Shown here: one piece after another, positions 3,696 through 44,143 of the stretch
Position numbering within the stretch: the first letter of the stretch is position 1
Layout: every line of letters starts with the position of its first letter
Virus record (IMG/VR): IMGVR_UViG_3300050821_017219
Coordinates: 14,383 to 78,382 of that record
Direction: 5' to 3' (one strand)
DNA from: a virus
DNA: 64,000 nt
The notes under the pieces: generated by a model
The model's database searches: none
What the model saw: only the letters and a program-made list of their open reading frames with translations
Told to the model about the DNA's origin: nothing
Translations under genes and position numbers: made by a program

Positions 3696-5438
3696 ATGGG
3701 TCGTTCAACGCTACTTGTCCGTCGATCTCGCATCAGCGTCGATCCCTCGCCGTCGGGTGGAGGCGGAGGGACGGGGGCCACCGGATCTCCCGGCGCGACC
3801 GGGGCCAACGGCGCTACGGGTGCGACCGGCGCCGGTGTCACGGGAGCGACGGGCAGCGCGGGGGCGACCGGTTCTGCGGGAGCCACGGGGGCTACGGGAG
3901 CCGGAGTGACCGGTGCAACCGGCTCGCAAGGTGCGACCGGACCGGGCGGTGGTGCGACCGGCGCTACAGGCGCGACCGGAAGTAATGGTGCGACGGGCGC
4001 TACCGGAGCCGGTGTTACTGGCGCTACCGGCGCCGCTGGAGCTACTGGCGCGGCGGGCGCTGGAGCAACCGGAGCGACGGGGGCAGGTACAGCGGGAGCT
4101 ACGGGAGCAACTGGGGCAGGCGGGGGCGGTGCCCTCACGGCGTTCGGAGCGGACCTCGTTGGGTCGGCTGCGACAACGCAGTGGATCGCATCGATCAGCG
4201 GGCAAGGTGGTACTGGCGGGACCGTTCCCATCGGAGGGTCCGCCAATACGGTGATGCAGTTCCGGGCCGGCGCCGTTCAATCTTCGGCGGGGCTTTCGCA
4301 GGCACAGCAGACGAGTGACATCCCGACGGTCGACCTCGTCTTCGGGTCGCAGCGAGGATTCGCGACTGCAACAGGAACCAACCGCACCGCGGGCAGCATC
4401 GTCGCTGCGATTCCAGCGGTCACCAACGCTGGTACGGCTGCAGGGGCCTTCCGTGTGACGGAATCAGGCGCTGGAGTCATCGCCATCGCGCCTGGAGGCT
4501 TCGGGCAAGCGCCAACGTCTGGCGCTGCTGCTGCCGCAATTTGGTTGAACCTCACTCGCGGTACAGAGTCCGGTACGAACTACTCCATCGCAGCAAACTC
4601 TATCAATACGACCGTAAATGGAGTCTCTACCGTTCGTCTCGACGTCGCTGGTTTCGATCAGCTTTCCATGACGTCGGTTGGTGCGCAGTTCTTCCGCACC
4701 AACGGAACGGTCGCATTCGGCGGTGGGACCGGCGGAATTATCTCGATCGACAGCTCAGCGATCGTCCCACCGACGGCACTTCCGACGACTGCGGTGCTGG
4801 TTTACGCCAATACCGGCTCCCCAGGCAGCCTAGGGCTGATGGCGACGGGGATCCAGTTCAACAAGACGCTCGGGACGGTTACCGCAACGATCGGATCGGA
4901 CGGACCCACGACGGATGTCATACCAAACGGCATCCTAGTGCAAGCGGCATCGGCCTTTGCTGCTGCAGTCACCAACACCACTGGTGGGTCGGTGATTATC
5001 GCTGCTGGGGCCGCCTCTGCGCTCTCCAACGGAACGCAGATCTCACTGTCCGGCGGGGTCACCGGTGGTGGTGTACCCACCAATCTCGGGACGGTTCAGT
5101 TCCGAACGTCGGGCGTCGGCGGCAACTTGTCGGACCCATCGACGCTGTCGGTACCGTTCGCGTGGATCACGGCGCCGTCGTTCTCCATCGCGTCGGGTGG
5201 AACGATTACCCTCTCGGGCGCGCAGGCGGCATCGCCGGTGCTGACGATGACTGGGACGACGGCCGGAACGACGATCGCGTTTCCGAACGTTCCTGGCTTC
5301 TGGCTAGTCGACTTCAGCACCGTAACAGGTCCGCTCACCTTCACGAGCGGATCTGGAACGACGGCCGCGTTGACGGCAGTGGCGGGAGCCATCGTGACCG
5401 TCGTCACCATGGGTGGAAACAGAATCCGCATCAAGTAA
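3696..5438 (+). CDS. Collagen-like fibre protein with long Gly/Thr/Ala-rich beta-repeat C-terminus
   Basis: GAT-type repeats at about aa 25-145; A-rich leader before ATG. Confidence 0.72.
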
Positions 5439-8567: not shown

Positions 8568-8984
8568 TCAGTGCAGCAGCTTCAGCAGCGCGTGGATCAA
8601 AACGGTTGCAAGCGCAACCAAGATGATCGTCGCTGGCTTCTCCGTCACCCGCGCGAGCCACGGCGGCGTCGACGGCCGTTTGGACCGCAGCGGCGTGACG
8701 ATCGGCAGGGCAACCGGGGGGATGTTGAACCTTCCGGTCGCCTCCCCTTGCGCTCGCGAGATGGCTTGCTCAAGTTCACGGATGCGTTCGTCGATGGCGT
8801 CGTGACGCCTCTCGTCAGCACTGAGATGCTCGTTGTGACGTTTCTCGGCGAAAGCGCCGTGCTCGGACAGCTGACGGTTGAGCGCACGAAGGTTGATGCC
8901 GTCGAAGGTGTCGCGGCGGCGCTCTTCGAGTAGCTCTCGGATCTGCTCCAAGACCAGGTCGTTGCTGCTCGATCGGTCAGGCAT
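8568..8984 (-). CDS. Coiled-coil protein with C-terminal TM helix (holin-like candidate)
   Basis: Heptad-like region HDAIDERIRELEQAIS; C-terminal hydrophobic IILVALATVLIHALL; near the lysin. Confidence 0.5.
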   Translation of the reverse strand: MPDRSSSNDLVLEQIRELLEERRRDTFDGINLRALNRQLSEHGAFAEKRHNEHLSADERRHDAIDERIRELEQAISRAQGEATGRFNIPPVALPIVTPLRSKRPSTPPWLARVTEKPATIILVALATVLIHALLKLLH

Positions 8985-9056
8985 CGAGATGAAATTGTAG
9001 CATAATCGGCTACGGATGCTTAGATTCATCCGCAACCGTGACGTTGCAGTTGGTCG

Positions 9057-9254: not shown

Positions 9255-9470
9255 TTACAGTTTCTTCTTTCGTCGCTGCGTTATCGACTCAGCCTCAAAC
9301 GTCGGTGGTGGATCAGTATCTATCTTCGTCAGAATCCACTGGTAGCGCGTGGTCGCCGCCAACAACGCGAGAGACGCTGCATCTTTCGGCGTAGCACTTC
9401 GCGTGTTTGCCCATTCGACGCAGAGCTTCAACACCAACGCTTCGGCTTCAAGCAACTGGCGTCTACGCAT
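9255..9470 (-). CDS. Hypothetical protein
   Basis: Overlaps the lysin stop; same operon. Confidence 0.45.
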   Translation of the reverse strand: MRRRQLLEAEALVLKLCVEWANTRSATPKDAASLALLAATTRYQWILTKIDTDPPPTFEAESITQRRKKKL

Positions 9471-10110
9471 TCACAATAATAGCAGATTTGATCGACCATG
9501 TCGGCAGATCGCCAAAGTTGTCCGGCTGGATGAAGTCGTGGTCGACCTGAACACCGTCGAGCCAAACATCGAGGGGGTAGCCTTGGACGTTGCAGAAGCC
9601 TCGCTGCTCCGGCGTAGGCACGTTCGACCCTGACTTCCAATAGCGCGTCATCTTCAGCGCGTGAAACCACTGCGCCGCCGTCAGAATCGACTGGAAGCCG
9701 ACGTAGACGCCCGGCTGAAACCCTGCGGCGGCAACGGCGTCAAACCAGGCGTTGGCGTAGACGATGACGTCGAGACTTGAGCATTCCAGCGAGACGCCTT
9801 CGATGTCACACCAGAGAGTCGTTCCAGCGGCGAAGCCGGCGCGTTGGGCGAAGTTGGCGAGGTTCATCCCGTCGAGCGCGCCCATACCGGCGTTGGGCTT
9901 CCAGGGAGGGTAGCGCACATGCCCCGCGCCCATGATCGCCAAACCGGCGTCGATAATGACGTTGAATTCGGCGGGTTGCACGTCGCGCGCGTAGCGAATG
10001 ACGAAATCGACGCCGTCTGATTTGAGTTTTTGACAAATCTCCGCCGTCAAGACGGTGTTGCAGTCGATGCCCTTCGCGCCGGGTCGGGCCAATGTTGCGA
10101 TGGCTGTCAT
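9463..10110 (-). CDS. DUF1906/GH25-like glycoside hydrolase, putative endolysin
   Basis: GIDCNT...GVDFVIRY...TLWCDIEG...GFQPGVYVG TIM-barrel pattern of Rv2525c-like peptidoglycan hydrolases. Confidence 0.78.
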   Translation of the reverse strand: MTAIATLARPGAKGIDCNTVLTAEICQKLKSDGVDFVIRYARDVQPAEFNVIIDAGLAIMGAGHVRYPPWKPNAGMGALDGMNLANFAQRAGFAAGTTLWCDIEGVSLECSSLDVIVYANAWFDAVAAAGFQPGVYVGFQSILTAAQWFHALKMTRYWKSGSNVPTPEQRGFCNVQGYPLDVWLDGVQVDHDFIQPDNFGDLPTWSIKSAIIVNA

Positions 10111-10573: not shown

Positions 10574-11070
10574 CAGACAGGCTTGCCGGCGTTCGCCGCG
10601 ATGTTCGTCGCGAGGTTGACCAGGATAAGCGCGCCCAATCCGATGCCCGCCGTCGCGAAGCCGACGTTGCGATTGGCGGGGGAGACCAGACCGACGACGA
10701 AGCCGCCGAGCGCCGTCGCACCGACGCCGACGCTGCCCCCACCGACTGCTCCGCCGAGGATGTCGACGGGCTTCGCCATCGCCCCTCCGAACGCGCCGAG
10801 ACCCCCGCCGACCGCGGCGCCGAGACCGAGGTAGCCGAGGGCGCCACCGATGGCGCTGTTGCTGGTAGGGTTGGCGTAGGCGAGACCGCGGTCGCGACGA
10901 CGAGAAAGTCGGTGAGACATGTTTCGCTTCTTTTTCTGCTGCTTTGACGCTGCTTTGCGTTGAATGCGGTAGGCGATGGCTGCGGCTTGCGCGGGTGGGT
11001 AGCCGTCGCGGCGAAGGGTCGCGATGTTGCGGCTTCGGGTAGCGTCGCTTGAGCCTCGGAGGAGAGGCAT
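10573..11070 (-). CDS. Basic N-terminal domain + NP motif + Gly-zipper membrane protein (putative virion protein)
   Basis: MPLLRGSS..RNIATL..GYPPAQAAAIAY phage-type small domain, RRRDRGLAYANP, three Gly-rich hydrophobic helices. Confidence 0.65.
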   Translation of the reverse strand: MPLLRGSSDATRSRNIATLRRDGYPPAQAAAIAYRIQRKAASKQQKKKRNMSHRLSRRRDRGLAYANPTSNSAIGGALGYLGLGAAVGGGLGAFGGAMAKPVDILGGAVGGGSVGVGATALGGFVVGLVSPANRNVGFATAGIGLGALILVNLATNIAANAGKPV

Positions 11071-11151
11071 GCGTCTACTCTAGCAGCGACGTCGATTCGG
11101 CGGTAGAGTCAAGTAGTAGACATGCGCCGTCAGACGAGACGTTGCTGAGAC

Positions 11152-11922: not shown

Positions 11923-13476
11923 ATGGCCGGAACACTCATCGTTCGTCGAGCTCGCGTCGTCACCAACGTCGGCTCGGGTAGCGGCAACGGCGCAACCGGC
12001 GCAACTGGACCGGGCGGAGGCGCGACTGGACCGACGGGGGCGACAGGTGCAACCGGGGCCGTCGGCGCATCAGGTGCCACGGGTGCTTTCGGTGTCACCG
12101 GCGCTACGGGGCCGACCGCACGCACGCCGCTTGGCGCAGTCAGATTCATCGATCCATCCAACTCATCTGGCCTGGCGTCAGACAGCAACAACGGCGCAAC
12201 CAACGTAACGCCAATTCTGACGACAGCGCATCTCAATAACCTTCTGTTCTTCAAATCGCTGACGGCCAATACGACGATTACGTATATGAGCGACGATCTT
12301 AGCGGCGTTGGGTTGGATTATTCAACGATGGCGTTGGGCAATTTCAACTTGACGTTTCAGATGACGCCGGTCGTTACGCATACGGGTGGAACGCTCAACG
12401 CCGGCACGGTCGCGATCAATCCGTTGGCGGCGTCTGGCGGTCAACGCCAAGTCGTTCATACTTCCGACGTTGTGACGTTCAATCCGTTTGTCTTTACAGG
12501 ATTGGGCGGAGCGTCGGCGCATCCACAACGACTCGTCGCGACGAGTGGAGGCGACGTCAATACTGGCGCGTGGATCGTCTCAGCAACAACCCCAGCTTCG
12601 CCGTCGATGTCTCGGTCAATCACGCCTGGTGGAACCAACGGCAATCTAACGATTGGCGACACCTACAAGATTCAGCGTGGGGGGATCATCAACGTCACGC
12701 AAGGCCAACCTCCCACACAAGACGCCGGGCCGTCTGGAGGTGGCGGTGGTCTAGTGTTCTTCAACGACGCCGCCTTTGGCCTAACGAGCTGGGGCATCGG
12801 AGGTATACAATACGCCCGATGTAGCTTTGAGAATTCACTTGTCGTTGCTGCGGGTCTTACCGATTGCTTCGTCGGCGCTGGTATTATCGAGATTCTACCG
12901 ATTGGATCTATCTCGATGACAGCCGGTGTTCTTGTGACGACTATCTTCGATTTACTTCATTCGTCCATTAGTTTTGCTGACGATACGTACATCACCGGAT
13001 CAGCCTTTATTCTTTCGGGCAACGTCTATGGTAGCGTAACGGCTCTGCCAGGTAGTGGTAACGGGATTCAAATCCAAGATATGACGAACCCTACCGGCGC
13101 GCTCATCGTTTTGACCGCCATCCCGTTTGCGAATCAGACGGGGTCGCCGTCGAACCCGCTCATCTGGGGAAACGGTAACGTCGGACCGGGTATCACGATC
13201 GGACCGGGAGCGTGTATCACGGTGGCTGACGAGGTTGGGGTTGTACCGAGCGTCACCGGAACCGGCGGAGACTTCGCATTCATCGCCGAAAATAGCGGAC
13301 CGCTTGTGACGGTAGCGCGCGCTTGGAACAACGCGACGGGCGCCTACACGGAAGCGGGGGGCGTTGCGACCAGAACGACGACCTGGGCGCATTTCGCTGC
13401 TAGTATCTCCCCCGGTGGCGGTTTTCTCTTTCAAGCGCATAACGTAGCGACAGCAGCGTCAATCATTGCGGTCTGA
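11923..13476 (+). CDS. Collagen-like fibre/spike protein with beta-rich head
   Basis: Short GAT tract, then FIDPSNSSGLASDSNNG..T.PILT motif typical of beta-helix adhesin starts. Confidence 0.7.
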   Translation: MAGTLIVRRARVVTNVGSGSGNGATGATGPGGGATGPTGATGATGAVGASGATGAFGVTGATGPTARTPLGAVRFIDPSNSSGLASDSNNGATNVTPILTTAHLNNLLFFKSLTANTTITYMSDDLSGVGLDYSTMALGNFNLTFQMTPVVTHTGGTLNAGTVAINPLAASGGQRQVVHTSDVVTFNPFVFTGLGGASAHPQRLVATSGGDVNTGAWIVSATTPASPSMSRSITPGGTNGNLTIGDTYKIQRGGIINVTQGQPPTQDAGPSGGGGGLVFFNDAAFGLTSWGIGGIQYARCSFENSLVVAAGLTDCFVGAGIIEILPIGSISMTAGVLVTTIFDLLHSSISFADDTYITGSAFILSGNVYGSVTALPGSGNGIQIQDMTNPTGALIVLTAIPFANQTGSPSNPLIWGNGNVGPGITIGPGACITVADEVGVVPSVTGTGGDFAFIAENSGPLVTVARAWNNATGAYTEAGGVATRTTTWAHFAASISPGGGFLFQAHNVATAASIIAV

Positions 13477-16759: not shown

Positions 16760-16948
16760 ATGAAAAACGTATCGACTGAAAAAGTCGACGAGTTGTTTCG
16801 TGCGGTCGAAGCGCATCTCGCGCAAGCGCCGGATTTGGCGGATCGGCTAGAGGCGGAGCTTCAGCATCATCTCGCCCGCGCGCGAGAAATCGAGACGGCG
16901 CTCGTTCATATACGACCGATTGCCCTTGCGCATCGAAGCCGTCGATGA
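16760..16948 (+). CDS. Small helical hypothetical protein, first gene of the rightward replication operon
   Basis: Coupled to the next gene by ATGA. Confidence 0.5.
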   Translation: MKNVSTEKVDELFRAVEAHLAQAPDLADRLEAELQHHLARAREIETALVHIRPIALAHRSRR

Positions 16949-17322
16949 CGAAGCGCATCCTCGTCGTCGGGGGTCGCTCCTTCAAAGACTGGCGTCTCCT
17001 GTTTCGCATCCTCGGCGAGATCAAGGCAGCGCTCGACGAGAAGCCCGTCATCGTCACCTGGAACGCCATCGGCGAGAAGACCGACGGCGCCGTTAGGCTG
17101 GCGCGGAAGTTCGCGCGTGAGAACGACCTGCTTTGGGTCGAGAATCTCTTCGCGGAGCTACAGCTTGTCGTCGCCTTCCCGGGGGCCGGCACAGAGCGAG
17201 CGCTGCAGCATGCATGGCGCAAGCGCATCCCGGCGCTGAAGGTCTTCGCCGACGGCAACGTCATCGTCGTCGGAAGTAGCTGCAAACAATTCTTTGCGAC
17301 ACGGAAGGCGGCACCACGATGA
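16945..17322 (+). CDS. SLOG-family (DUF2493/YspA-like) protein
   Basis: RILVVGGRSF...VVAFPGAGT. Confidence 0.7.
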   Translation: MTKRILVVGGRSFKDWRLLFRILGEIKAALDEKPVIVTWNAIGEKTDGAVRLARKFARENDLLWVENLFAELQLVVAFPGAGTERALQHAWRKRIPALKVFADGNVIVVGSSCKQFFATRKAAPR

Positions 17323-17741
17323 GGGTTCTGGTCTGCGGCGGTCGCGACTATCGCGGCATCGAATGCGTCAACGCGACGCTCGATCGCCTCCACGCCGTCT
17401 ACGGCATCGAGGTGGTCATCCATAGCGGCGTCGGTAGTCTTACTGATTTTTACGCCGGAGGATGGGCGACTCATCACGGCGTTGGCCAGCATGTTTTTCG
17501 CGCAGATTTCAGAAGCTACGGCAAGTCTGCCGGCCCGCGCCGCAACGCCGAGATGCTCCGCAAAGGGAAGCCTGACCTGGTCGTGGTCTTCCCGGGGAGA
17601 TGCGGAACGCGCGACATGTTTCACAAGTCGATCCGCGTCGGTGTCGCTGTCGTCGAAATAATGTCGTCGCGCGTCGTAAAAATTCATGGCGAGGCCGTTC
17701 GATACGCGCGCGCCTTCGCTGAAGAAAAGGCGACGCCATGA
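17319..17741 (+). CDS. SLOG-family (DUF2493/YspA-like) protein
   Basis: MRVLVCGGRDY...YGKSAGPRRNAEML..KPDLVVVFPG..GTRDM. Confidence 0.82.
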   Translation: MRVLVCGGRDYRGIECVNATLDRLHAVYGIEVVIHSGVGSLTDFYAGGWATHHGVGQHVFRADFRSYGKSAGPRRNAEMLRKGKPDLVVVFPGRCGTRDMFHKSIRVGVAVVEIMSSRVVKIHGEAVRYARAFAEEKATP

Positions 17742-17872
17742 CGCTGCCGATTTTTTGGATGATTCTGCTGCTCGGCGCCTTCGCTATCGTTTTCTGCGGT
17801 CTGCTGATCTGGCTGTCATTCGTCGAGACGAAGTTTTTAGACGGCTCCAACAAAAACGGCGACGGCGAATGA
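17738..17872 (+). CDS. 44-aa membrane peptide (not in the ORF track)
   Basis: MTLPIFWMILLLGAFAIVFCGLLIWLSF...; ATGA overlaps with both neighbours. Confidence 0.55.
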   Translation: MTLPIFWMILLLGAFAIVFCGLLIWLSFVETKFLDGSNKNGDGE

Positions 17873-19584
17873 CCGCCGCCAACCCGAAACGGCCGTCACC
17901 CCTGGCGGCTGCGGCAGCCATCGTTGACGACGACAGCAACGCCAACGGCGGCGACTTCGACGGCATCAGCGGCATCGTCGCTAAAATTCAACAACAGAAT
18001 CAATCGTCGACGACTCCGACTGCTTCTGCTTCGACACCGCCACCAACAACGCCGCCGAAGCAACGCCAGCAGCCACCGGCGAACACCAAGCGCTTCGCGA
18101 AGACCGACACCGGCAACGCCGAGCGACTCGCCTACTACTTCGGGCAGCGCTTCCGCTACGTCGAGGAGTGGGACGAATTTCTGGTCTGGCGATCGACCCA
18201 CTGGCAACGCGACCCCCAGCACGTTCGGGTGGAGGCGTTGACGAAGGAGGTCATCGCCAAAATTCGCGACGAAGCGCGTGGCTTCGGATCAACGACAGCA
18301 GAAGGTCGCGCGCTCTACGCATGGAGTTTAGAAAGTCAGAAGCGGGCGAAGCGTCAGGCGATGGCCGCGCTCTCCCGAAGCGAGCTGGGGGTAGCCGTCT
18401 CCCACGAGAAGTTGGACGCCAACGCGTGGCTGCTGAACGTCAAGAACGGCGTTTTAGATCTACGCAGCGGTGAACTGTCGCCGCATCGACCGACCGACTT
18501 GATCACACGCGTCGCCGACGTCAGATTCGATCGCAAAGCTAAAGCCGAAAATTTCAAACGATTTCTGTCGCGTGTGTTGCCGGATGAAGAGACGCGTCTA
18601 TTTTTGCAGCGCTTCATCGGCTACAGCCTCACGGGGGATGTGGGGGAGCGCGTTTTCGTCGTTTGCTACGGCGGTGGCCGCAACGGCAAGTCGGTGTTGC
18701 TGCGCATCATCCAAGCGATGCTCGGCAAATATTCGACGACCTGCGCGCCTGGTCTTTTGATGGCGCGCAAGGATGAAGCTCACCCCGCCGACGTCGCCGA
18801 CTTATTTGGCGCGAGGTTGGCGGTGGCTTCTGAAGTCAAAAAAGGCCGAACGTTCGACGAAGAGAAGGTCAAGCGCATCACCGGCAACGACATGCTCAAG
18901 GCGCGGCGGATGCGCGAGAATTTCTGGGAGTTCTTGCCGACGCACAAGATCATCTTGGCGACCAACCACAAGCCGAGGGTGGCGGATGCGACCGACAGTT
19001 TTTGGGACCGCATCGCGCTCATCCCGTTCGACGTGCGCATCGACGATGGTGAAGTCGATCGAAGTCTCGCCGAGCGTCTGATCAAGGAGGAGCTCTCCGG
19101 CATCCTTACGTGGGCGATGGAGGGCTGCTTGGCGTGGCAGAAGGAGGGGCTGCGCATCCCGAAGGCCATCGTCGACGCGACGCGGGAGTATCGCGCTGCC
19201 GAGGACGTCGTAGGGGGCTTCGTGGGCGAACGCTGCTTGTTCAGCACCATTGAGTTTGAGTCGATAGCGACGCTCATGGCGGCGGCGCAGAAGTGGTGCG
19301 CGACCAACGAACGCTTTCCCTTCAGCAAAAAAGACCTGGGCGAGTGGTTGAAGCAGCACAAGTGCATCGAGGGCCGAGATAAAGCCTGCAAAGTGCGTGG
19401 ATGGAAGGGAATTCGCCTACGAACGCTCTCCGAAATGGCTCCAGACGTTCAAGACGTTCTAGACTCAAATTTACCCTTATCGGTAGGATCGGGAGTTACA
19501 GATCCCAATACGCGCGCCATAGGTAAAACAGCGTCTGAAACGGCTAGAACGTCTAACGCTAAAAAAGGCGATAAAATCAACTAG
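17869..19584 (+). CDS. D5/P4-family SF3 helicase (D5_N + helicase + wHTH), no primase domain
   Basis: TDTGNAERL, LNVKNGVLDL, Walker A GGGRNGKS, LATNHKPRV, RIALIPF. Confidence 0.9.
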   Translation: MTAANPKRPSPLAAAAAIVDDDSNANGGDFDGISGIVAKIQQQNQSSTTPTASASTPPPTTPPKQRQQPPANTKRFAKTDTGNAERLAYYFGQRFRYVEEWDEFLVWRSTHWQRDPQHVRVEALTKEVIAKIRDEARGFGSTTAEGRALYAWSLESQKRAKRQAMAALSRSELGVAVSHEKLDANAWLLNVKNGVLDLRSGELSPHRPTDLITRVADVRFDRKAKAENFKRFLSRVLPDEETRLFLQRFIGYSLTGDVGERVFVVCYGGGRNGKSVLLRIIQAMLGKYSTTCAPGLLMARKDEAHPADVADLFGARLAVASEVKKGRTFDEEKVKRITGNDMLKARRMRENFWEFLPTHKIILATNHKPRVADATDSFWDRIALIPFDVRIDDGEVDRSLAERLIKEELSGILTWAMEGCLAWQKEGLRIPKAIVDATREYRAAEDVVGGFVGERCLFSTIEFESIATLMAAAQKWCATNERFPFSKKDLGEWLKQHKCIEGRDKACKVRGWKGIRLRTLSEMAPDVQDVLDSNLPLSVGSGVTDPNTRAIGKTASETARTSNAKKGDKIN

Positions 19585-19654
19585 TTGCAGAAACGTCTAC
19601 GTGACCGATCTCACAAACAGCCACGGTTTTATAGCTCAGCCGGAAAGCCGCCAG

Positions 19655-20014
19655 ATGAAGACCGCCAAGCACTACGCCGACCTTCTCGTCAACAACGTCA
19701 CAAAAACGGTGGCGGCGCCGACCATCGAAGACTGGCGCGCCGAAGCCGAAAAAATCTTCGCCTTCATTCTGTTCCAACCGCAGCATCGGCCCAACATTCG
19801 CGTCAACGAGCAGATCATCGCTACGACGGTCATCTACATCGACAGCGTCGGCAACAAGTGGGGCGAGATCGAGACGGCAGAAGCGATTCGTCGCGCGAAG
19901 GCGTTAGGGTTGTCACTCGTCGAGATCAACCCGCGCGCGTCGCCACCGGTCTGCAAGGCGATCAAGTGGCCCTACAGAAAAAAGCCGACCGAACCACCGC
20001 CGGAGATCGTATGA
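19655..20014 (+). CDS. Protein containing only the translation initiation factor IF3 N-terminal domain
   Basis: IRVNEQI.ATTV.YID..G...G.....EA...A...GLSLVEINPRASPPVCK matches the IF3-N consensus RINE.I...VRLID..G...G......AL..A...GLDLVE..P.A.PPVCK. Confidence 0.8.
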   Translation: MKTAKHYADLLVNNVTKTVAAPTIEDWRAEAEKIFAFILFQPQHRPNIRVNEQIIATTVIYIDSVGNKWGEIETAEAIRRAKALGLSLVEINPRASPPVCKAIKWPYRKKPTEPPPEIV

Positions 20015-20322
20015 GCAACGTCAACGGCAAGACGAATGGCATCGCCAAAAAATCCGAAGCTGATGCCGCTTCCGACGACGACGTCGATACGCTTCCGACC
20101 ATCGAAGCCGTCGTCGAAGCCTTCCTCGCCGACTCGACGTCGCCCGATCGTGCCTCCTTCACGTCGACGGCGGACATCATGGCGGCGGCGCGCGCGTGGT
20201 GCGACGACCGCGGCGAGTTTCGCTTCGGCCGGCGCTTGCTCGCGAAGCAGCTGCAGCAGCGTGGGTGCAAGCCGCAGCGGACGAACACACAGCGGGGATG
20301 GAGAGGAGTGAGGTTGCGATGA
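20011..20322 (+). CDS. Stand-alone D5 C-terminal winged-helix paralogue
   Basis: MAAARAWC...F....L...L...GC......RGWRGVRLR aligns with helicase C-terminus MAAAQKWC...FSKKDLGEWL....C.......RGWKGIRLR. Confidence 0.7.
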   Translation: MSNVNGKTNGIAKKSEADAASDDDVDTLPTIEAVVEAFLADSTSPDRASFTSTADIMAAARAWCDDRGEFRFGRRLLAKQLQQRGCKPQRTNTQRGWRGVRLR

Positions 20323-23300
20323 CGAAGGAATGGTTTGAAGGCGTCACGCGAGAATTCGGCATGCCGGGCCGCGCGGAGGAACGCATCCGCCGATGCCCTA
20401 GAACGCCGGGTTGGTACATCGCCGAGCTCGAGTTCGCTTGCTGCGGCGTCGGTGGGGCCGCCCACCTGATCCCTATCGGCGCGTGGATCTACGTCGCCGA
20501 CGATGACGGATACGTTTGCTGCGAGAATCATCCGCCTTACGGCGGGTTTCCAGTACGTCGATGAACTACGTCGTCAAAGACGAGCACAACCGCTACCACC
20601 GCGAGGTGCACGAGCTGCGCGGGAAGCGTTGGCATCGCCGCTTCGAGTGGGTCACGTCGCGGCTCGAAGCGACGGTCTTCACGACTTACACGGCGGCGAA
20701 GTTTCGGCGCGACAGCCTCTACACGACGGCGGCGATTTTCGTCGTCGAGCTGACGTGAATAGAAGCGCGGCGGGTGACGTCTAACGAGGCGGAGGCTGAG
20801 TCTTCGATGAAAACAGAGCGCAACTACGAGACCGAGAAGGCTGCGCATGAAAAGACACGTCTGGAGCGCAACGACGCCCAGAAGCGCGCGCAAAGCCTGA
20901 TCGGAACCGTCAGAGGCCTCGAAGCGAAGGTGAAGCGTCTCGAAGAGCAGAACTTGCGGCAGGAAAAATTGATCGCTGGTCTCGAAAGCGGAGAGAGACG
21001 TGAGTTTCAGCAGCGATGCCGCCTTCTAGATCAACTTCGACAACTAGTGACGGAGGCAGACGACCGATGACTGAGCCGCTCCGGTGTGATTTCTGCAGGC
21101 GCACGGATGGTGGGCCATTCGCTGAAAAGACGAGGCGCGGGCGTATTTTGAAGCAGGCTGACTTCCCGTGGATCATCTGCAAGCGTTGCTGCGACGCGGC
21201 ATCGAGGTCAAGTGGGGACCGACGTACACATTCAAGGTGGAGCCATGAACGACGAAGACAAGAAGCTGATCGAAGAGGCGGAGCGACTCGACGCGGAAGC
21301 GACGCCGGGGTGGGCTAGCTATCCAGTGGGGTTCTGCGGGTACGCCTACGAAACCGTTTGGGCGAAAAACGTAGACGACGAACCTCTGTTTGAATCGTAC
21401 AGCCAACCCGACACGCGCTTCGTCGTCGCCGCTCGTACGCTGCTGCCTCAGCTCGCGAAGCGTCTGCGCGAAGCGTTGAACGTTCCCGACGTTCCGCCGG
21501 AGCCGCCGAAGCTGCCGGAGCCGCTCGTCGACGGCTACTACTGGGTCCGCCTCCCTAGCGACGCGCCGATCATCGCCGAGCGCGAAACGTATGGCGGACG
21601 CGCTCACTGGTTCCATTTCGGTGCCGATGGTTCTGACAACGTCGAACCGCTGTTCGGCCCACTGCAGCCACCCGCCGTCACAAACACGTCGCCGATTGTT
21701 CCATGGCCTGTCGATCTACCTCCGCGTTTCAATGGCGGAGTTCAATGCGATGCCCTCGAAGGCCCGTGCGCATGCGGCGCGTGGCACTCTAAGGTCACAA
21801 ACGTCACGAAATAACAGCCAGATTTGACGGAGCGACCAAAATGTCTCATCATCGACTCAACGATCGGCGACGCGTCGTGGCGGATGTCGGTCTCGCGCTT
21901 CCGTCGCCCCCCTCGCCTAGCCGCCAGGGGGGCGACGGTTTCTCAGGCGCAGACGTCAAGATGCCGTTGACTCCGCCAGCGGCAATCTACGTCACGACGA
22001 TGCGTCTCGTGGGCGGCGAAGGCGGCGTCTGGGTTTGGTTCAACGTCGAGGTGCCATTGTGATGCGCCACGGCTACTTCCTTCCCGGGCGCGGTCTCTTC
22101 GGCGACATCGACCTCGCTGTTGATGCGCAAACGTTCTGGTCCCTAAGCCCAGCGGGGGACTTCCTCTGGAAGCACCTCGGCCACTACGACGGCGCTTCGA
22201 TATGGATCACCAATGACGGCCGAACCACCATCCGTTTGTGCCTCCAAGACTTCTTCAGCGAGAAGTTCCGCGTCGAGGTTCGCGACTGGAGTGGTATCAG
22301 TTGGGAGCGCGCGCGATGAAACACTCGCCACTCGTCGGCGACTCCGTCAGCATCACTCGGGGCGTCTCCCTCGTCTGCCCATTCTGCGGCGGTACCGTCG
22401 ACATGGGCGACCTCTCCTGTGGTGGCGTTGGCGCGATCCATACGTTCCCCACCTGCGACACGTTCGATCGTCTCACCGTCGACGAGTTTGCCTACGCCTG
22501 CCGCATCGCCATCGAAGCGACGGTGAAGGCGGAAAAAGCATCGTGATCGATCTTCATGAAGGCGTCGCCGAAATCTTCGCTGCGGCGCAACAAGACGACG
22601 GCGTCGACCACGGCGACCTTCGGTTCGACTCAGACACCGCGCGGAGCCTCACCTACGAAGCCGCTTTCATTGCGCAGGCGCGCCTCGCCGAAGGTGTCAC
22701 GCGATGGCGTTGCGCTACCTGCGGCGAGGAAGTAGAACAACGACCCGGCGTTCGTGTGGCGTTTCACATGGGAAACCTACGCGACTCGAACTGTGGCCGA
22801 CGAGAAGCGCCTAGAGACTTTCAAGAGACGCAAAATCGTCTTGCTGTCGCGCCCGCTTTGACTTACCGTAACTCCTCACGCTGACGCCGCCGCTTCGTGC
22901 CGCCGCGTCGGTAGCTACCGCGAGACTTGAAGTCGACGAAAATTCAATCGTCGAAAACCACGACTGAAAGGCGTTGCCGATGGCGTCGAAGTTTCGACAG
23001 ATTTCTGTGTCGTCTGTTCCCGACGATAATGATGGCGTCATCGATAGCGTCTACGCGCTCGATGAAGCCGGCGTCGTCTGGCTGTTCAACAACACCGACG
23101 AGCGGTGGGAGGCGCTCTCGAAGCAGCGGTATGTCGCTGGCGCGTCGAACGACGATGCCGGCGAAGACGAGGGGGAGTGATGCCACCGACAAAAGAAGAA
23201 GTTGCTGACGTTCAGGAAACTTGGTTCGGTTGGTTGCTGAAGGATGGTGGTTGATGCCATCTTACAACGACTGGCCGACGAACGACGAAGATTGGGCCTT

Positions 23301-25294: not shown

Positions 25295-25558
25295 ATGTCT
25301 GAAAACCACGACAACGATTCGTCTACGCCGAAGAAGCTTCACGGCTTCGCAGCTTGGTCGAAAGAGCGTCAACGTGAGGCTGCCTCGAAGGGCGGTAAGA
25401 CCGCTCACGCTCTGGGTACAGCTCACAAATTCTCTGGCGACGAAGCGAGAGAAGCCGGCCGACGCGGCGGGTTGGCCATCGCAGCGAAGAAGCGGCGCAT
25501 GAAAGAAGAAGCAGAATTGAAGACATTCGTCGAAATCGAAGAAACGACGCCGCGATGA
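25295..25558 (+). CDS. KGG-repeat (stress-induced, YciG/GsiB-like) protein
   Basis: GFAAWSKERQREAASKGGKTAH...AHKFSGDEAREAGRRGG. Confidence 0.8.
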   Translation: MSENHDNDSSTPKKLHGFAAWSKERQREAASKGGKTAHALGTAHKFSGDEAREAGRRGGLAIAAKKRRMKEEAELKTFVEIEETTPR

Positions 25559-26022
25559 TGCCGATGATGCCGCGAGTATTTCTCGTCACGCCTTACGCCG
25601 AAGTCATCGCAGACAAATACAAGACAGATGGATACAACTGGCTTCATCGGCCAAACGTCATCTTCGCGCAGCGTTGCATGGCTGATTGTCTTCGTCGCGA
25701 GGAAGCCGTCTTCGCTTGCCACTTGCTCTACACGCAACCCGGCGTCTTAGACGACGCCAAAACCGACGAAAGGCATCTCGGTCTAACCGCCGGTCGTCGG
25801 TTCCTCGCGGTCTGCGACCGCGCCGTCTGCTACGTCGATCGCGGCATCTCGAGCGGAATGCGCGGCGACTTGGAAGAGGCGTTGAGACTGAAGACGCCGA
25901 TCAACTTTCGGCGGCTCGACGGAGCGATGGTCGGTGGAACGTTTCTTCATACGTATTCGGTTCCGCATTGGCCGTGCGGTTTGTGTCTAGACGTGGCGTT
26001 GTCGAAAGTCTCGGCGAGATGA
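25555..26022 (+). CDS. Nucleoside deoxyribosyltransferase-like (DUF4406/DUF7768-type) protein
   Basis: VFLVTPYA...HLLYTQPGVLDD...ER..G......FL..CD....YVDRGISSGM. Confidence 0.65.
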   Translation: MMPMMPRVFLVTPYAEVIADKYKTDGYNWLHRPNVIFAQRCMADCLRREEAVFACHLLYTQPGVLDDAKTDERHLGLTAGRRFLAVCDRAVCYVDRGISSGMRGDLEEALRLKTPINFRRLDGAMVGGTFLHTYSVPHWPCGLCLDVALSKVSAR

Positions 26023-34238: not shown

Positions 34239-34252
34239 GCTACACTGACGCC

Positions 34253-36391
34253 ATGCCTTCCACCCGCCTCTCCAGCGCCGAAAAGCCCACCATCGAAGGT
34301 CTCGTTGCAGAACGCCGCACCTACGACGGCAAGTGGGTAGGATTTTGGAACGACGGTACGATCGTTGTCGGTCATCCGGTGGTGAACAAAACGATCGCGC
34401 GGAACGTACCCAAAGCGCTCTGGTTTATCATCGCCGATGACGTTTCGCTCTACGACGAAGCTGAACTAAAAGGACTCGTCAAAGCGGCGCGGAAGGCATA
34501 TGACCTCCACAAGCGCGAGCCACATCGAGTCCGAAGCGAAGATCTACTCCGTCTCATGCGTTCGTATGCGCCGCCAACGCATGCGGCAGCATCAGAGACG
34601 ACGCGTCTCTCCAGCGGCGACGTCTCCTCGTCCGATCGCCCGACGACGACCCCCGACGAGTCCGGCCCCCGCATCGTCGCCGCCGGTACCTACGAGGCGG
34701 TGCTGCGCCGTTGTCTCTCAGATTTAGGATCGAACGACCCGGACATCTTGCTGCGGATGAGCGGCGACTTCTGGAAGCGTTGCCGCGACGCCGGAGTCGA
34801 TCCGAAGGTGGCGGCGACGACCATCTACACCGCCGAGCGGCATCACCATGAAGTCGCGCGCGTCGTGATCAAAGAAGCATCCGAAACATCTTCAGCGTCA
34901 GAATCGCCAACGATGCTCGGCGAAGAGTGGGAAGTCATCGTCAGGCGTCACGGCGCATCGATGAACAAGATCGTCGAAGCTGCTGGTAAGAAGGCTGACG
35001 CCGTCGAAGGCCCGAACGTCATCTTCGGAGACTTCCGCGACGATGAGAAGGCAGCGGCGTTTGCGCGCAAGATGACGAAGGCTGGTTTTGTTAGCTACTA
35101 TGGCCCGCACAAACAAATCTCTGCTGAGGCCAAAGAGACTTCGACGTCGCCGTTTCAGCGGCCAGACGCGCTAACGCATGCGCGCGGCTACTACAAGCAG
35201 TATCTACAGGTCGAGAAGGAAGATCCGGGCGGTCTCCACTCGAGCGAGCTTCGCGGCTACCTTCTCGCGCAATTGCTTCGCCAAGATGGATCGATCCCCA
35301 CCTGGGATGAAGCGGTCGCGCTGATCGATGGCGGCGCCGAATTGTCGGACGCAGAAATCGCCGCCATCGCCGCCGCTGTCGTCGCCTCGGGTGGATCGAC
35401 CGACAAAAACGTGGAGAAGCTAGGCGGAAGATCATTCAGTCACTATGGCGCGCCACGACGATTGACCGACCACGAATTGGCGCGCGTGCAGCAATGTATC
35501 CACGCAGCAGACGAAGCAACCGAAGCCGACGACAAAAAACCAGACTGGGCGCAGCGCCGTTTCCTCAAGCTGATCAAAGAGGTCCGCACCAACGGCGGGC
35601 GCGCCCGAATCGCCGACCTGCGCGATCGCCTTCCATTGCTATCGAAGTCGGAGTTCGATCAGACGCTCGTACGGATGCAGCGCGAGGGCTTCATCGTACT
35701 CTACCCCATCGACAACCCTCAAGAGATGAAGCAGCGCGACATCGACTCCGCCGTGAGCATCGCCGGTGACCCGCGGATGCTTATCTACATCGAGCCGGCG
35801 TGGGAGAGCTTCGTAGTCAACGAGGCTGAGGAGATGCCGCGCGGCGAAGGTGGCGTGCAGTCGCAAATCGCAGCGCGAATGCAGCCGGTTGAAGTAACGC
35901 CAGACAAATCAGCTTGTGTGACGTGCATCCCATGGATCAAAGTCTCTCGCGACCCCGCGCAGCACGCGGCCATCGCTGAGCTCGCGAAGAAGTTCGGCAA
36001 GATCCGAACGCCGCGCGATGTCTACGCCATCGTCGGCGACGACTTGAACCGCGAGACACAAGAGGTCTTCCTCGTCATCGCGCTGAACGTTCACTCGCGG
36101 CTGATGTGCGCCCCCTACGAGATTGCACGAGGGCAGCGTGACCGAGTCGCCGTCGGCATCGACAACGTCATGGACGCCGCCTCCGACGCGCGATGCGCCG
36201 CCTTTCTAGTTTGCCATCAACATCCTGGAGACTCACCCGAGCCCTCCGAGGCCGACTGGAAGCTCTACAAGGATATCGTCAAGGCGACCCCACCTGGTAG
36301 AGTTTGTATCGACAGCCTCGTCGTCGGACCAGCGAGCATCTATAGCTGCGCCGAGAAAAAGCTCCACAAAATCGCTGCGTCGAGGCGTTGA
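34253..36391 (+). CDS. Polyvalent multidomain protein with C-terminal RadC/JAB domain
   Basis: QEVFLVIALN...HQHPGDSPEPSEAD...IDSLVVG; upstream wHTH-like and other small domains. Confidence 0.75.
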   Translation: MPSTRLSSAEKPTIEGLVAERRTYDGKWVGFWNDGTIVVGHPVVNKTIARNVPKALWFIIADDVSLYDEAELKGLVKAARKAYDLHKREPHRVRSEDLLRLMRSYAPPTHAAASETTRLSSGDVSSSDRPTTTPDESGPRIVAAGTYEAVLRRCLSDLGSNDPDILLRMSGDFWKRCRDAGVDPKVAATTIYTAERHHHEVARVVIKEASETSSASESPTMLGEEWEVIVRRHGASMNKIVEAAGKKADAVEGPNVIFGDFRDDEKAAAFARKMTKAGFVSYYGPHKQISAEAKETSTSPFQRPDALTHARGYYKQYLQVEKEDPGGLHSSELRGYLLAQLLRQDGSIPTWDEAVALIDGGAELSDAEIAAIAAAVVASGGSTDKNVEKLGGRSFSHYGAPRRLTDHELARVQQCIHAADEATEADDKKPDWAQRRFLKLIKEVRTNGGRARIADLRDRLPLLSKSEFDQTLVRMQREGFIVLYPIDNPQEMKQRDIDSAVSIAGDPRMLIYIEPAWESFVVNEAEEMPRGEGGVQSQIAARMQPVEVTPDKSACVTCIPWIKVSRDPAQHAAIAELAKKFGKIRTPRDVYAIVGDDLNRETQEVFLVIALNVHSRLMCAPYEIARGQRDRVAVGIDNVMDAASDARCAAFLVCHQHPGDSPEPSEADWKLYKDIVKATPPGRVCIDSLVVGPASIYSCAEKKLHKIAASRR

Positions 36392-36995: not shown

Positions 36996-37801
36996 ATACC
37001 ACCGTCACGTGCGTCTATCGCATCGCGCAAGGCGGCGCGGCGTTGACGACGCTTCAGTCGAAGGTCGCCGCCGTCGTCGTCAACTCTTCCATTCTGTCGA
37101 CGCTCGGCGCGCGTATCACGAGCGACGTCACTACCATCGCCGCCGGTTTCGCCATCCGAACCATCGTCTTTTCGATCGTGCCGACGGTCGCAGCCGGCGC
37201 GACGGCAGCGCTCAACTCCAACGACTTCCTCTCCGGCGTGTCGGTCTTCTCGGCCGGCTCTGACTACATTCTGCCGCCCGTCGTCAAATTCGCTGGTGGA
37301 AACCCCTACAAAATCGCGTCGGCGCGCGCGACGTTGAAGGCCGTCGGCGTCAACGTCGTCGCTGGTGGCTCAGGCTATACCGCAGCGGCGGTCGCAACAG
37401 CCGTCGGTGCGATCAACCCCAACCATGACATCAAGCTCGGCCAAGCCCCACCGAAGCCTGTCTTGATGACGTTGACGCTTGGCGGTGGCGGAGCCATCGT
37501 CGGCGTCGCCATCACCGATGCGGGCGCTAACTACGAAGGCGTTCCCTCGGTTGTCGTCACCGACGTCGTTGGGGGTGGAAGCGGCGCCATCATCGATCTG
37601 TCGATGGGCGTCAGCGCCGTCGATGTGATCTACCCCGGGCAAGGCTTCCAGGCGGTTCCGGCGTGTCAGCTGATCCCAGCCTTCCGTGTGATGTTCCCCG
37701 ACGGACCTTCGCAGGCGGCACCTTTCGCGAACCTCATGACGACGGCGATTGCGCAAGCAGTGATGACGCCGGTCGTTGCGGATGCGCCGGTGTTGTCATG
37801 A
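36992..37801 (+). CDS. Beta-repeat structural protein
   Basis: Four VxVxxxGxxY/F repeats (AGSDY, GGSGY, AGANY, PGQGF) as in virion/surface proteins. Confidence 0.6.
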   Translation: MNTTVTCVYRIAQGGAALTTLQSKVAAVVVNSSILSTLGARITSDVTTIAAGFAIRTIVFSIVPTVAAGATAALNSNDFLSGVSVFSAGSDYILPPVVKFAGGNPYKIASARATLKAVGVNVVAGGSGYTAAAVATAVGAINPNHDIKLGQAPPKPVLMTLTLGGGGAIVGVAITDAGANYEGVPSVVVTDVVGGGSGAIIDLSMGVSAVDVIYPGQGFQAVPACQLIPAFRVMFPDGPSQAAPFANLMTTAIAQAVMTPVVADAPVLS

Positions 37802-39303
37802 CGCGCGAAGATGACAACTACGACGAGCGAGACGACGATGACGGCGAAGGCGAGCCGCCTGAAGAAGTCGTCGAAGCCAAAACGAAGGCAATACCGCCGA
37901 AGAAGCGCAATCCGAAAGCGCGAAACGGCGTCGGTGGAGCGTTGGGTGGTGCGCCCGAAGATTCGCCGCGTGAAGCTGAGCTGCTCTGGCTGTGGATTCT
38001 CGCGCGACTTCCCAGCGAAGGCCGCTCCGCCTACGACGTGACCATCCAAGTCTTGCAGCTCGATCCACCCGCCTCAAACGGCCGCGCCTTCATGGTGGGA
38101 AGCTTCGGCGGTGGCGCAATCCGCGGCAGCGAAACTGTTGATCCGTCGCAGGCGTTGATCAGCTACGTCACCGACAACTTTCACATGCCGCGGTCTCAGT
38201 CGAGACAGTCGGTGACCTACCAGATCCGCTTCATCTGGGCATCGAACAGCCAGCAGATGAAGCGCGGCGAGCTGACGCTTCCCCCGCGCGACGAGATCAT
38301 CGCCGTTCGACAAGAAGAGGCGCGCCAGCGGCAGGCCAACGGCGAGCCGGTGACCCCCTACAACCCGCCGCCGATGCATCAGCAAGGCGTCGGTGTGCCG
38401 CAACCATGGCCGCAGCCGTTTGGCTTTCCGCCGTCTTACTACCCCCCGCCTGCCGGTGGCGATGCGCAGATGATGCCGCAGCTGCTGACGATGATGCAGG
38501 AGATGTGGCGCGCGCAGCTCGAAGGCCGCCCACCCAATCCCGCAGCTGCCGGTGTCGCTGCGCCACCACCCGCGCCTCTCAACGAAGACAGCATCGTACA
38601 GAAAACGACCGCCAGCGTCTTGATGGCGCTGCAGCAAGCCGGCATCTTGACGAAGCCAACCGCCGGTGTCGCCGCCGCAACGCCAACGCCTGCGGTCTCG
38701 CCTGCGTCGCCGGCTGCATCGAATCCATTCGCAGGCATGATGGAAAAAGCCGTCGGTCGCATGTTCGAGGCGGCCGTCGGTGAGGTGGAGAAAAGCGTCA
38801 AGAAGACCATCGCTGGCGTCGGCAAGCCGCAAGACGACGACTATTACTTCGACGACGATGACGATGGAAAGAAAGGCGGATCATCTTCGCCTGCATCTGC
38901 AGCCGTTGGCGTTGGCGCGCCACCGACACCGCCGAAAGAAGACGCCTTCGATCTGCCGTGGGCGACGAAGCCAGTCGCCGATGCGAAGTGGGGCGACGGC
39001 CGCCCAGTCGTCTACGCCGAAGACAAAGAGACCGGCAACTTCTCGTGGCAGGGCGCGCTCATGAGCAACCCCACCGTGCTCGAGAAGGGGATGGAAGCCG
39101 CGCAGGGTCTCGCCGGAGCGTTGACGAACATCGTGAAGCAGGTCGGCGCCAAAGCTTCCGCCGGCTTCGCGCAGGCGCCGCAGAATCCGCCGCCGCAGAT
39201 GACGCCGAAGACGGTTTCGATACCGCCTGCCGCAACGGTTGTGGCGGAGACGCCCGCGGGCGCGGTGGATGCGACGCCAAAGTCTTGGAAAGACGGCGAC
39301 TAG
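37798..39303 (+). CDS. Pro/Gln-rich multidomain protein with repeated GVG/GVA motifs (putative scaffold/assembly protein)
   Basis: ATGA coupling; six GV(G/A) motifs in low-complexity linkers. Confidence 0.65.
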   Translation: MTREDDNYDERDDDDGEGEPPEEVVEAKTKAIPPKKRNPKARNGVGGALGGAPEDSPREAELLWLWILARLPSEGRSAYDVTIQVLQLDPPASNGRAFMVGSFGGGAIRGSETVDPSQALISYVTDNFHMPRSQSRQSVTYQIRFIWASNSQQMKRGELTLPPRDEIIAVRQEEARQRQANGEPVTPYNPPPMHQQGVGVPQPWPQPFGFPPSYYPPPAGGDAQMMPQLLTMMQEMWRAQLEGRPPNPAAAGVAAPPPAPLNEDSIVQKTTASVLMALQQAGILTKPTAGVAAATPTPAVSPASPAASNPFAGMMEKAVGRMFEAAVGEVEKSVKKTIAGVGKPQDDDYYFDDDDDGKKGGSSSPASAAVGVGAPPTPPKEDAFDLPWATKPVADAKWGDGRPVVYAEDKETGNFSWQGALMSNPTVLEKGMEAAQGLAGALTNIVKQVGAKASAGFAQAPQNPPPQMTPKTVSIPPAATVVAETPAGAVDATPKSWKDGD

Positions 39304-39324
39304 CAGCTCTGCTACGATTGCGGT

Positions 39325-40665
39325 GTGACAACGACGCCGCATTGGCCGCAGGTAGTGGTGCCGCGCCGTGTCGGTGTCGCCGGTCTGACCGATTTTGAGG
39401 CGCACTTCGCGTCCGACCCCAACTTTGCGTCGGCGTGGAACGATGTCGGTGGCCAGCTCCTCGCCGAAGGCGCTAGCAGCTCGCAGGTCGACCAAGCGAA
39501 GACGTGGTTCGTCAACGCCGTCGAGGGAGCTGTCCCTGGGGTAACCGGCGACCAGGCCATCGCCTCCGCGAAGCAGCTCGTGCTGCTTGGGCAGACGGTC
39601 ATGGGCGCCGTCGCTACGGTGCAAGGTCTTCTCCAGACCGTCGAAAGTGGGTCGGTCCCACAAATTACGCAGGCGTTTACCGGCGTCTTGATCAGCCTCG
39701 GCGTCGGCACTGGGTTAGTCTCGGCCGGTATCGGCGCGGCCATCGCGCTCGGCATCTCCGTCGTGTTGGCGGCGCTTCAAGACCTTGGATTTTTTACTAG
39801 CAACGCCCCTCCGACATTTGACATCCCTGGGTGCGGCAAGTGGTACTGGGTGCCGGACTACCTCATCGGATGCATGGGCGTTCAAGCGAAGGGCGGCACT
39901 GCCAACGATCCGCTCTTGACGCAACCCTTTCATGTCGCGCCGGGCTCCCCCAACTGGCGGACGTTCCCGGTGCCGGGCAACATCATCCCATACGTCGAAG
40001 GCGCGGACAAAGAATGGTACGTCCCTGGGTTGGGGATGGTTGGCCACTGGAAGGGCATCTTCATCGACTACGGCGCCGTCGATGCAAGCGATGGGCGGCG
40101 GCCGATCGATCGCGCGTTTCCGAATTTTCGGCAGCTCGAAGCGGACAGCGGACCGGGAGCAAGCGACTTCCAGCGCGCGTTCGGTGGCGCATGGCGAAGC
40201 AACGCGGAGTATGCGTTCAACGGGTTGAAGCCGCAGCCAGACGAACAGGTGCTGCTCCATACCATTCGATTGTGGAACCGTTCGCACGATGGCCCCGCAG
40301 TTACGCTCGATCAAAGCAACGCGACCTACGCCAATTCGCTCGTCGACGCCGCCGTCAACAACGTGATGTCGAGTGACATCGGTTTGCTGTCTGGCCAAAG
40401 CTTGCTCGTCAACGCCGGTGGGTTGAAAACCCAAACGCCACGTGTCGTCACGCTGCATCTAGGCGGTAGTTTCGATTCAGCGACGTCGCCAACAACCGGC
40501 CTTATGTCGTCGACGGGTGGAAAAATTCTCGCGGGTACAGCTGCAATCGGCGGCGCCGCACTGCTCGGAAGCGCGGCGTACGCCTTCGCAAAGAAAGAGA
40601 GCATCGGCGCCGTCTGGAAGAACGTCTTCAAGACGGTGACGAAACCTCTGAGAGGTGGAAGATGA
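39325..40665 (+). CDS. Membrane-associated putative virion protein
   Basis: N-terminal TTPHWPQ..VGVAG; internal and C-terminal hydrophobic helices. Confidence 0.7.
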   Translation: MTTTPHWPQVVVPRRVGVAGLTDFEAHFASDPNFASAWNDVGGQLLAEGASSSQVDQAKTWFVNAVEGAVPGVTGDQAIASAKQLVLLGQTVMGAVATVQGLLQTVESGSVPQITQAFTGVLISLGVGTGLVSAGIGAAIALGISVVLAALQDLGFFTSNAPPTFDIPGCGKWYWVPDYLIGCMGVQAKGGTANDPLLTQPFHVAPGSPNWRTFPVPGNIIPYVEGADKEWYVPGLGMVGHWKGIFIDYGAVDASDGRRPIDRAFPNFRQLEADSGPGASDFQRAFGGAWRSNAEYAFNGLKPQPDEQVLLHTIRLWNRSHDGPAVTLDQSNATYANSLVDAAVNNVMSSDIGLLSGQSLLVNAGGLKTQTPRVVTLHLGGSFDSATSPTTGLMSSTGGKILAGTAAIGGAALLGSAAYAFAKKESIGAVWKNVFKTVTKPLRGGR

Positions 40666-44107: not shown

Positions 44108-44143
44108 TTGTCAAGCGCTTTCGCTGCTAGACTGACACCCATG
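44104..44143 (+). promoter_or_regulatory. Sigma70-type leaderless promoter (representative example)
   Basis: TTGATT-18nt-(TGc)TAGACT-7nt-ATG, no SD. Confidence 0.5.

Follow-up and report, generated by a model that had tools for sequence, protein, structure and literature searches.

We identified, in a 78,382-bp virus genome from IMG/VR, an intact-looking gene that encodes the N-terminal domain of translation initiation factor IF3 by itself, fused to an N-terminal segment of its own and lacking the linker helix and the C-terminal domain of the factor. The best single explanation, in our judgement, is that the protein acts as an IF3 N-domain decoy that weakens the 30S-pathway checkpoint of the host. 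This explanation is coherent but far from shown, and we put its probability at roughly one in three. The genome is rated complete and carries a 97-bp direct terminal repeat. The stretch that we analyzed, referred to here as the window, is 64,000 nucleotides long and covers bases 14383-78382 of the record; coordinates are given as window positions, and residue numbers refer to a 137-aa form of the protein unless stated otherwise.

Reading frame and coding signal

The gene lies on the plus strand at 19655-20014, where an ATG opens a frame for 119 aa that runs without an internal stop to the TGA at 20012-20014. A public gene call (P0001) is identical to this reading. A GTG at 19601, 17 nt past the stop of the upstream primase gene, could extend the protein by 18 codons at its N-terminus (19601-19654, plus strand) to a total of 137 aa, and public gene calls include both the 119-aa and the 137-aa length, the longer being represented by P0151. 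There was no clear Shine-Dalgarno sequence ahead of either the ATG at 19655 or the GTG at 19601.

The coding signature of the 19655-20014 frame was strong and similar to that of its neighbors, with a GC3 of 0.77 versus a GC2 of 0.43. The start of the next gene overlaps the stop of this one as ATGA. Based on the GC3 value and the overlap, the gene looks native and intact.

Identity of the IF3_N domain

An earlier note made from the DNA alone had described a clear IF3-N match that was preceded by about 45 unrelated residues and followed by no IF3 C-domain, and this description held in each of its parts. The Pfam profile IF3_N (PF05198) matched residues 68-121 of the protein over profile positions 1-54 of 70, with 54.4 bits (cut-off 26.9) and an E-value of 1.5e-14, and IF3_N was the sole recognisable domain. 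A six-frame search of the whole phage with the same profile gave an E-value of 4.7e-16. When the protein was compared with the PDB by phmmer, IF3 chains were the only matches, including 8jsg_A at E 2e-6. The phage IF3 family PHROG 9787 was matched as well, over positions 3-58 of 168 only (27.8 bits, E 4e-6).

The globular core of the domain, residues 68-121, is encoded at 19802-19963 on the plus strand. We built an AlphaFold2 model on an alignment of 144 IF3_N-containing matches, and in this model the domain had a pLDDT of about 98. In Foldseek superpositions of the model, the rmsd was 0.7-1.0 Å across 53-58 residues for the IF3 N-domains 6o6d, 1tif and 5lmn_X; for the IF3 chain in 9a5a_B, an integrative model, it was 0.5 Å. 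A model predicted from the single sequence had a mean pLDDT of 49.7, which made it unusable, and it was dropped.

Compared with the 144 sequences, the phage protein has kept the structural signature of the domain, comprising N69, I72, G84, G88, A95, A99 and PPVC. It deviates, in E. coli numbering, at R20 (now I), R25 (I), the 97%-conserved D52 (S), D69 (K) and G71 (P). [quoted passage not shown] Since Arg occupies the R25 position in just 56% of IF3_N sequences, we do not consider its loss decisive. The net charge of the domain is +1 versus a mean of -0.75 in full-length IF3, a normal value that 22% of sequences reach or exceed.

Absence of the linker and C-domain, and a unique N-terminal segment

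Profile searches with both halves of IF3 found IF3_N and did not find IF3_C (PF00707), which gave no match at E≤10 in the protein or in any of the six frames of the 78,382-bp genome; control genomes were matched in the same search. The IF3_N match extends to profile position 54 of 70 and breaks off where the Lys-rich linker helix, which includes Y75, should start. In IF3 the linker helix lies on h23/h24, and the linker and the C-domain make stable contacts with rRNA. The C-domain is responsible for anti-association and for proofreading of the P site and start codon. In place of the linker helix, the phage protein has a short basic, Pro-rich tail (KWPYRKKPTEPPPEIV; 19964-20011, plus strand). 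In a column comparison with the 144 IF3_N sequences, the linker consensus DxGKxKY was replaced by KWPYRKKP plus a Pro-rich end, with D69 changed to K, G71 to P and K72 to Y, and the AlphaFold2 model contained no helix after residue 121.

The region upstream of the core (19655-19801, plus strand) is unique to this protein. The number of residues ahead of IRVNEQI is 47 when counted from the ATG, which agrees with the earlier estimate of about 45, and 65 when counted from the GTG. Two helices are predicted in the region. The second spans residues 42-57 with a pLDDT of 83-90, while residues 1-20 were modeled with low confidence. We found no relatives of the segment in the ESM Atlas or by exhaustive phmmer search, apart from a repeat-inflated match to P0002, and the segment showed no similarity to the primase of the phage. 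P0002 was the second-best phmmer match and covered part of the segment; it consists of a 59-aa unit present six times, which inflates the score, and we rejected it as a relative.

Relatives of the phage protein

Searched exhaustively with phmmer, 1.84 billion representative proteins yielded the protein itself and 762 matches, with no close relative or orthologue among them. All of the matches listed align through the IF3_N core only, with the exception of two repeat proteins that matched other parts of the query. A word-index search returned the protein itself alone. The best full-length IF3 was 53-55% identical over the domain. The N-domain of bacterial IF3 (infC) has the same fold as the phage protein at 35-55% identity, and the two have in common the PPVCK strand, a G-x3-G turn and an A-x3-A helix. 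They differ in that bacterial IF3 continues into the linker helix and IF3_C, whereas the phage protein instead adds its unique N-terminal segment of 47-65 aa and carries I, I and S in place of R20, R25 and D52.

Every viral homologue that we recovered was a full-length protein of about 170-180 aa with both the N- and the C-domain. This set comprised eight IMG/VR loci, the seven GenBank phage records that we examined out of nine matched, and both structure matches in BFVD; several of the GenBank phage records with IF3 are short unverified scaffolds. Six of the eight IMG/VR loci were on contigs of 139-252 kb, and the other two were on contigs of 10 and 21 kb. Full-length IF3 genes have been described in huge phages, where they were read as a means of hijacking translation (Al-Shayeb 2020, PMC7162821; Iyer 2021, PMC7824862). 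The protein studied here is likewise virus-encoded, but it is N-only and comes from a probably temperate phage of 78 kb, whereas huge-phage IF3 (PHROG 9787) has both domains. Because all of the viral homologues recovered are full-length, in agreement with the huge-phage reports, the N-only form in a mid-size, putatively temperate phage is, judged by sequence, a distinct variant of phage-encoded IF3, which has so far been known only as a full-length factor of very large phages.

Further scans were made in viral and metagenomic data. In IMG/VR, searches with P0001, P0005, P0032, P0055 and the degenerate pattern VEINPRAxPPVCK returned full-length IF3 or nothing, and the IF3 N-domain gene was not found near three distant relatives of the primase. 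A metagenome scan with P0032 gave no match, and in a scan with P0028, 78 out of 80 loci carried infC in full length. Among named full-length IF3 proteins, the closest belong to Planctomycetota, at 46-53% identity, a level too low to fix the host. Out of 401 Planctomycetota genomes, 5 had a second IF3_N match; two of these were split at contig ends, two were second full-length copies, and one was a non-conserved fusion with RMMBL.

Core-only IF3_N modules in other sequences

Among the phmmer matches, 97 had no C-domain, and 91 of these were included in alignment A1. The linker motif was kept in 56 of the 91, and these look like infC fragments or frameshifts. The remaining sequences, about 35, have non-linker tails, and their cores end at profile positions 53-60. 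One architecture recurred, in which a ClpX-type C4 zinc finger (zf-C4_ClpX) is joined to the IF3_N core in proteins of 115-132 aa (P0055, P0273 and P0005). The zinc finger of P0055 scored 46.7 bits, and the contig that encodes this protein is 79.5 kb long. The papers that we searched do not describe this architecture. Other core-only modules were P0032, P0012 and the group P0028/P0094/P0109, and single metagenomic examples were seen of IF3_N joined to DUF7768 (P0025), to PP2C and to SDR.

The phage protein fits this informal core-only group in that its core ends near positions 53-60, it has neither linker nor IF3_C, and it begins with an unrelated N-terminal segment. The metagenomic modules share the same principle, namely an unrelated N-terminal segment, an IF3_N core and a short non-linker tail. 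They differ from the phage protein in sequence (34-43% identity) and have N-terminal segments that are mutually unrelated; the zinc finger is not found in the phage protein. The end of P0005 (...CKIMKWPRPR) resembles the end of the phage protein (...CKAIKWPYRKKP). A basic residue at the R20 position is present in 79% of full-length IF3 sequences and drops to 43% in core-only forms. Judging from these sequences, most of which are single metagenomic examples, core-only IF3_N seems to be a genuine portable module, though a rare one.

In a Planctomycetota MAG, an ORF on the minus strand (L207 1489-2217; G328:C136) combines the C-terminus of an RMMBL protein (beta-CASP RNA-metabolising metallo-hydrolase) with a diverged IF3_N core. 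This fusion is not conserved, as the IF3_N part is lacking from its orthologues in 39 genomes belonging to the same order. A fragment of an unfused RMMBL copy, 97% identical, is present on another contig. The ESM Atlas also contained a cluster with a viral label and a score of 0.86, made up of 50 IF3_N-only proteins of 84 aa, which we treat as a lead only.

Position within the replication operon

The earlier note had placed the gene inside a replication operon, and the neighboring genes bear this out. Two tandem YAcAr (YspA/cpYpsA-related SLOG) genes at 16945-17322 and 17319-17741, both on the plus strand, precede a D5-type primase-helicase gene at 17686-19584 (plus strand), and the second of the two overlaps the start region of the primase. 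The primase-helicase matched Pfam D5_N at 106 bits, DUF5906, and a PHROG DNA primase family at E 1e-115. The gene that follows the IF3 N-domain gene (20011-20322, plus strand) encodes a stand-alone paralogue of the C-terminal ∼75 residues of the primase-helicase (BLASTP 36% identity over 74 aa, E 4e-12, with a PHROG primase C-terminal match), and its product may regulate or partner the replication initiator. Further downstream, also on the plus strand, are genes for an AAA_24/Sak4-like ATPase, a DUF7768 protein and a PolA-type polymerase. We found no promoter-like site and no plus-strand terminator-like site adjoining the IF3 N-domain gene. ATGA overlaps are common throughout the phage, and many of its internal cistrons are stop-start coupled.

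The DUF7768 gene of this operon is located at 25555-26022 on the plus strand; its product matched Pfam DUF7768 at 73 bits and is 41% identical to the DUF7768 domain of P0025. Prompted by P0025, the single DUF7768+IF3_N fusion, we predicted a complex of the IF3 N-domain protein with the phage DUF7768 protein and obtained a score of 0.31 versus a mark of 0.32, a value that speaks neither for nor against an interaction. The DUF7768 family is very large (more than 7000 matches) and is at times fused to an RNase_T exonuclease.

Other translation genes were absent from the phage, with no tRNA, no Rfam RNA, and no IF1 or S21 above threshold. The IF3 N-domain gene is therefore the only translation-related gene that the phage carries.

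A leaderless-type promoter signature

The apparently leaderless viral transcripts on which the earlier note had relied received some support from the distribution of a promoter-like motif. The pattern GCTANNNT-N5-9-RTG, in which RTG is ATG or GTG, occurred at 16 sites, compared with 6.5±2.7 in shuffled sequences, and 0 of 100 shuffles reached 16. Exact ORF starts coincided with 6 of the 16 sites, and some of these six had TTGAC ∼17-18 nt upstream. The sites include 8982-9001, 9468-9483 and 11068-11084 on the minus strand, together with 34239-34255, 39311-39327, 44126-44143 and 10 more. A -10-like box ahead of starts gives some support to the presence of leaderless transcription units, as far as can be read from the DNA. 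The accompanying statement that IF3 antagonises initiation on leaderless mRNAs is backed by the literature, in which IF3, acting on the 30S subunit, is described as discriminating against such mRNAs (PMC8138138, citing Tedin 1997/1999).

Possible function of the protein

Any binding of the phage protein to the ribosome or tRNA, and any effect on translation, is an inference. It would be a stand-alone IF3 N-domain module, made up of a phage-specific helical segment, the IF3_N core and the Pro-rich tail, and would be transcribed together with the replication genes. [quoted passage not shown] With these sites occupied, the checkpoint of host IF3 that depends on its N-domain would be uncoupled, which would lead to weaker start-site fidelity and to slower canonical initiation through the 30S pathway, and the leaderless first cistrons of the phage, along with its tightly coupled downstream cistrons, would be relatively spared. 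For this to work, affinity or dimerisation, neither of which an isolated IF3 N-domain possesses, would have to come from the N-terminal helices.

Several observations argue for such a decoy. The IF3_N domain is well preserved (54 bits, rmsd 0.5-1.0 Å) and has no other recognisable domain beside it, two of the three elbow positions are basic (Q33 and R66 are both K), and docking of the IF3 N-domain has been documented at two sites only, on fMet-tRNA at its elbow and on the 30S subunit at the platform near uS11 (PMC5037330, PMC8266586). In E. coli, initiation is less faithful and growth poorer when the elbow contacts are mutated (PMC9723500), IF3 disfavors leaderless mRNAs, and the leaderless-type box is enriched in this genome. 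The precedent of IF3 in huge phages, the intact and native appearance of the gene, and the recurrence of the core-only boundary at positions 53-60 also speak for it.

There is evidence on the other side. Most functions of IF3 are carried by its C-terminal domain (PMC9723500), in line with the statement of the earlier note that this domain has the main anti-association and fidelity functions, and the phage protein has neither this domain nor the linker. The isolated IF3 N-domain has been reported as not binding 30S (PMC7145577). The earlier note had proposed that the truncated protein may compete with host IF3 and so favor leaderless viral transcripts; its premises are sound, but the simplest form of such competition conflicts with the reported binding behavior. 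R25, R20 and D52 are changed to I, I and S, the gene belongs to a replication module and not to a set of takeover genes, it is accompanied by no other translation gene, tRNA or Rfam RNA, and the search of 1.84 billion representative proteins left the protein a singleton without any orthologue. A more specific version of the decoy, in which the protein is a dedicated phage “anti-IF3” whose N-terminal helices aid docking on the initiator-tRNA elbow or the 30S platform, and which disables the N-domain checkpoint of host IF3 and thereby shifts initiation to leaderless and stop-start-coupled cistrons, seems unlikely to us.

The main rival to the decoy is that the beta-grasp-like IF3_N core has been co-opted as a generic module for binding RNA or protein, for example in replication, with no link to IF3 or to start sites and with the N-terminal helices carrying the activity or the contact with a partner. 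We regard this as only slightly less probable than the decoy. The gene is flanked by the primase-helicase and the paralogue of its C-terminus and shares an ATGA overlap with the latter, but such overlaps occur phage-wide and the coupling is hence unspecific. Elsewhere the core-only module is joined to the ClpX zinc finger, DUF7768, PP2C, SDR and the RMMBL nuclease, and a DUF7768 protein is encoded in the same operon of the phage; most of these fusions, however, are single metagenomic sequences, and the RMMBL fusion is not conserved in the 39 same-order genomes. The altered R20, R25 and D52 and the reported failure of the isolated N-domain to bind 30S (PMC7145577) would be in keeping with co-option, although all ligands known for this fold are components of the translation apparatus and we identified no partner.

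A further explanation, less likely and in our view rather improbable, is that the gene is the decaying remnant of a captured host infC that has lost its 3′ half and retains little or no function. That the protein is a singleton without orthologues, that it has S at D52 and K at D69, two positions that hardly vary otherwise, and that many metagenomic IF3_N-only calls are infC fragments or frameshifts that keep the linker (56 of 91) would all be compatible with decay. However, the frame is open with a phage-like codon bias (GC3 0.77), there is no trace of IF3_C in any frame of the genome, and the domain ends cleanly at the boundary seen in other core-only modules. Confidence in the predicted fold is very high, and the added N-terminal segment of 47-65 aa with its predicted helices is not expected from truncation alone. 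Identity to any bacterial IF3 is ∼55% at most, indicating long divergence without the appearance of stops. We consider it very unlikely that the protein binds the tRNA elbow off the ribosome, whether by shielding tRNA from host defence nucleases that target the anticodon or tRNA, or by sequestering initiator tRNA. The IF3 N-domain does contact the elbow of fMet-tRNA (PMC5037330, PMC9723500), basic residues occupy two of the three contact positions, and the domain is slightly basic (+1 versus a mean of -0.75). Yet the elbow contact of IF3 has been seen only on the 30S subunit, in a transient form, the phage protein has lost R25, the net charge of its domain is ordinary, and no defence or tRNA-repair genes lie nearby.

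A natural isolated IF3 N-domain would be a ready-made probe of the domain's own role, which has been called unresolved (PMC9723500). If the decoy does bias initiation toward leaderless mRNAs, it would represent a new viral takeover mechanism as well as a tool for tuning start-site fidelity, and with an “anti-IF3” form of it, a virus would reprogram bacterial start-site selection by a route not described before. If the protein acts elsewhere, the IF3_N fold would be a portable binding module, as is also hinted by the rare fusions with the ClpX zinc finger, DUF7768, PP2C and the RMMBL nuclease.

Other features of the phage

In addition to the long plus-strand replication module, the phage encodes an integrase, a glycosyltransferase and collagen-like/tail-fibre-like proteins. 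The integrase is of the tyrosine type (60701-62089, minus strand; PHROG 1, E 9e-23) and, by its sequence, indicates a temperate lifestyle. Three large plus-strand ORFs of the late region (37663-39303, 39325-40665 and 50325-51692) had zero PHROG matches, and a scan of the ten largest ORFs did not reveal a recognisable capsid, portal or terminase. Matches to tail-fibre families were limited to the N-terminal ∼100 residues in three ORFs (100-2739, 3696-5438 and 11923-13476), apart from one weak tail-fibre match of the 100-2739 ORF that reaches ∼300 residues. No RNA sequencing runs holding the phage were listed. Two soil-metagenome DNA runs contained short contigs identical or nearly identical to 20417-20636 and 20092-20222, which leave the IF3 N-domain ORF uncovered, and these contigs give a weak hint that the phage lives in soil.
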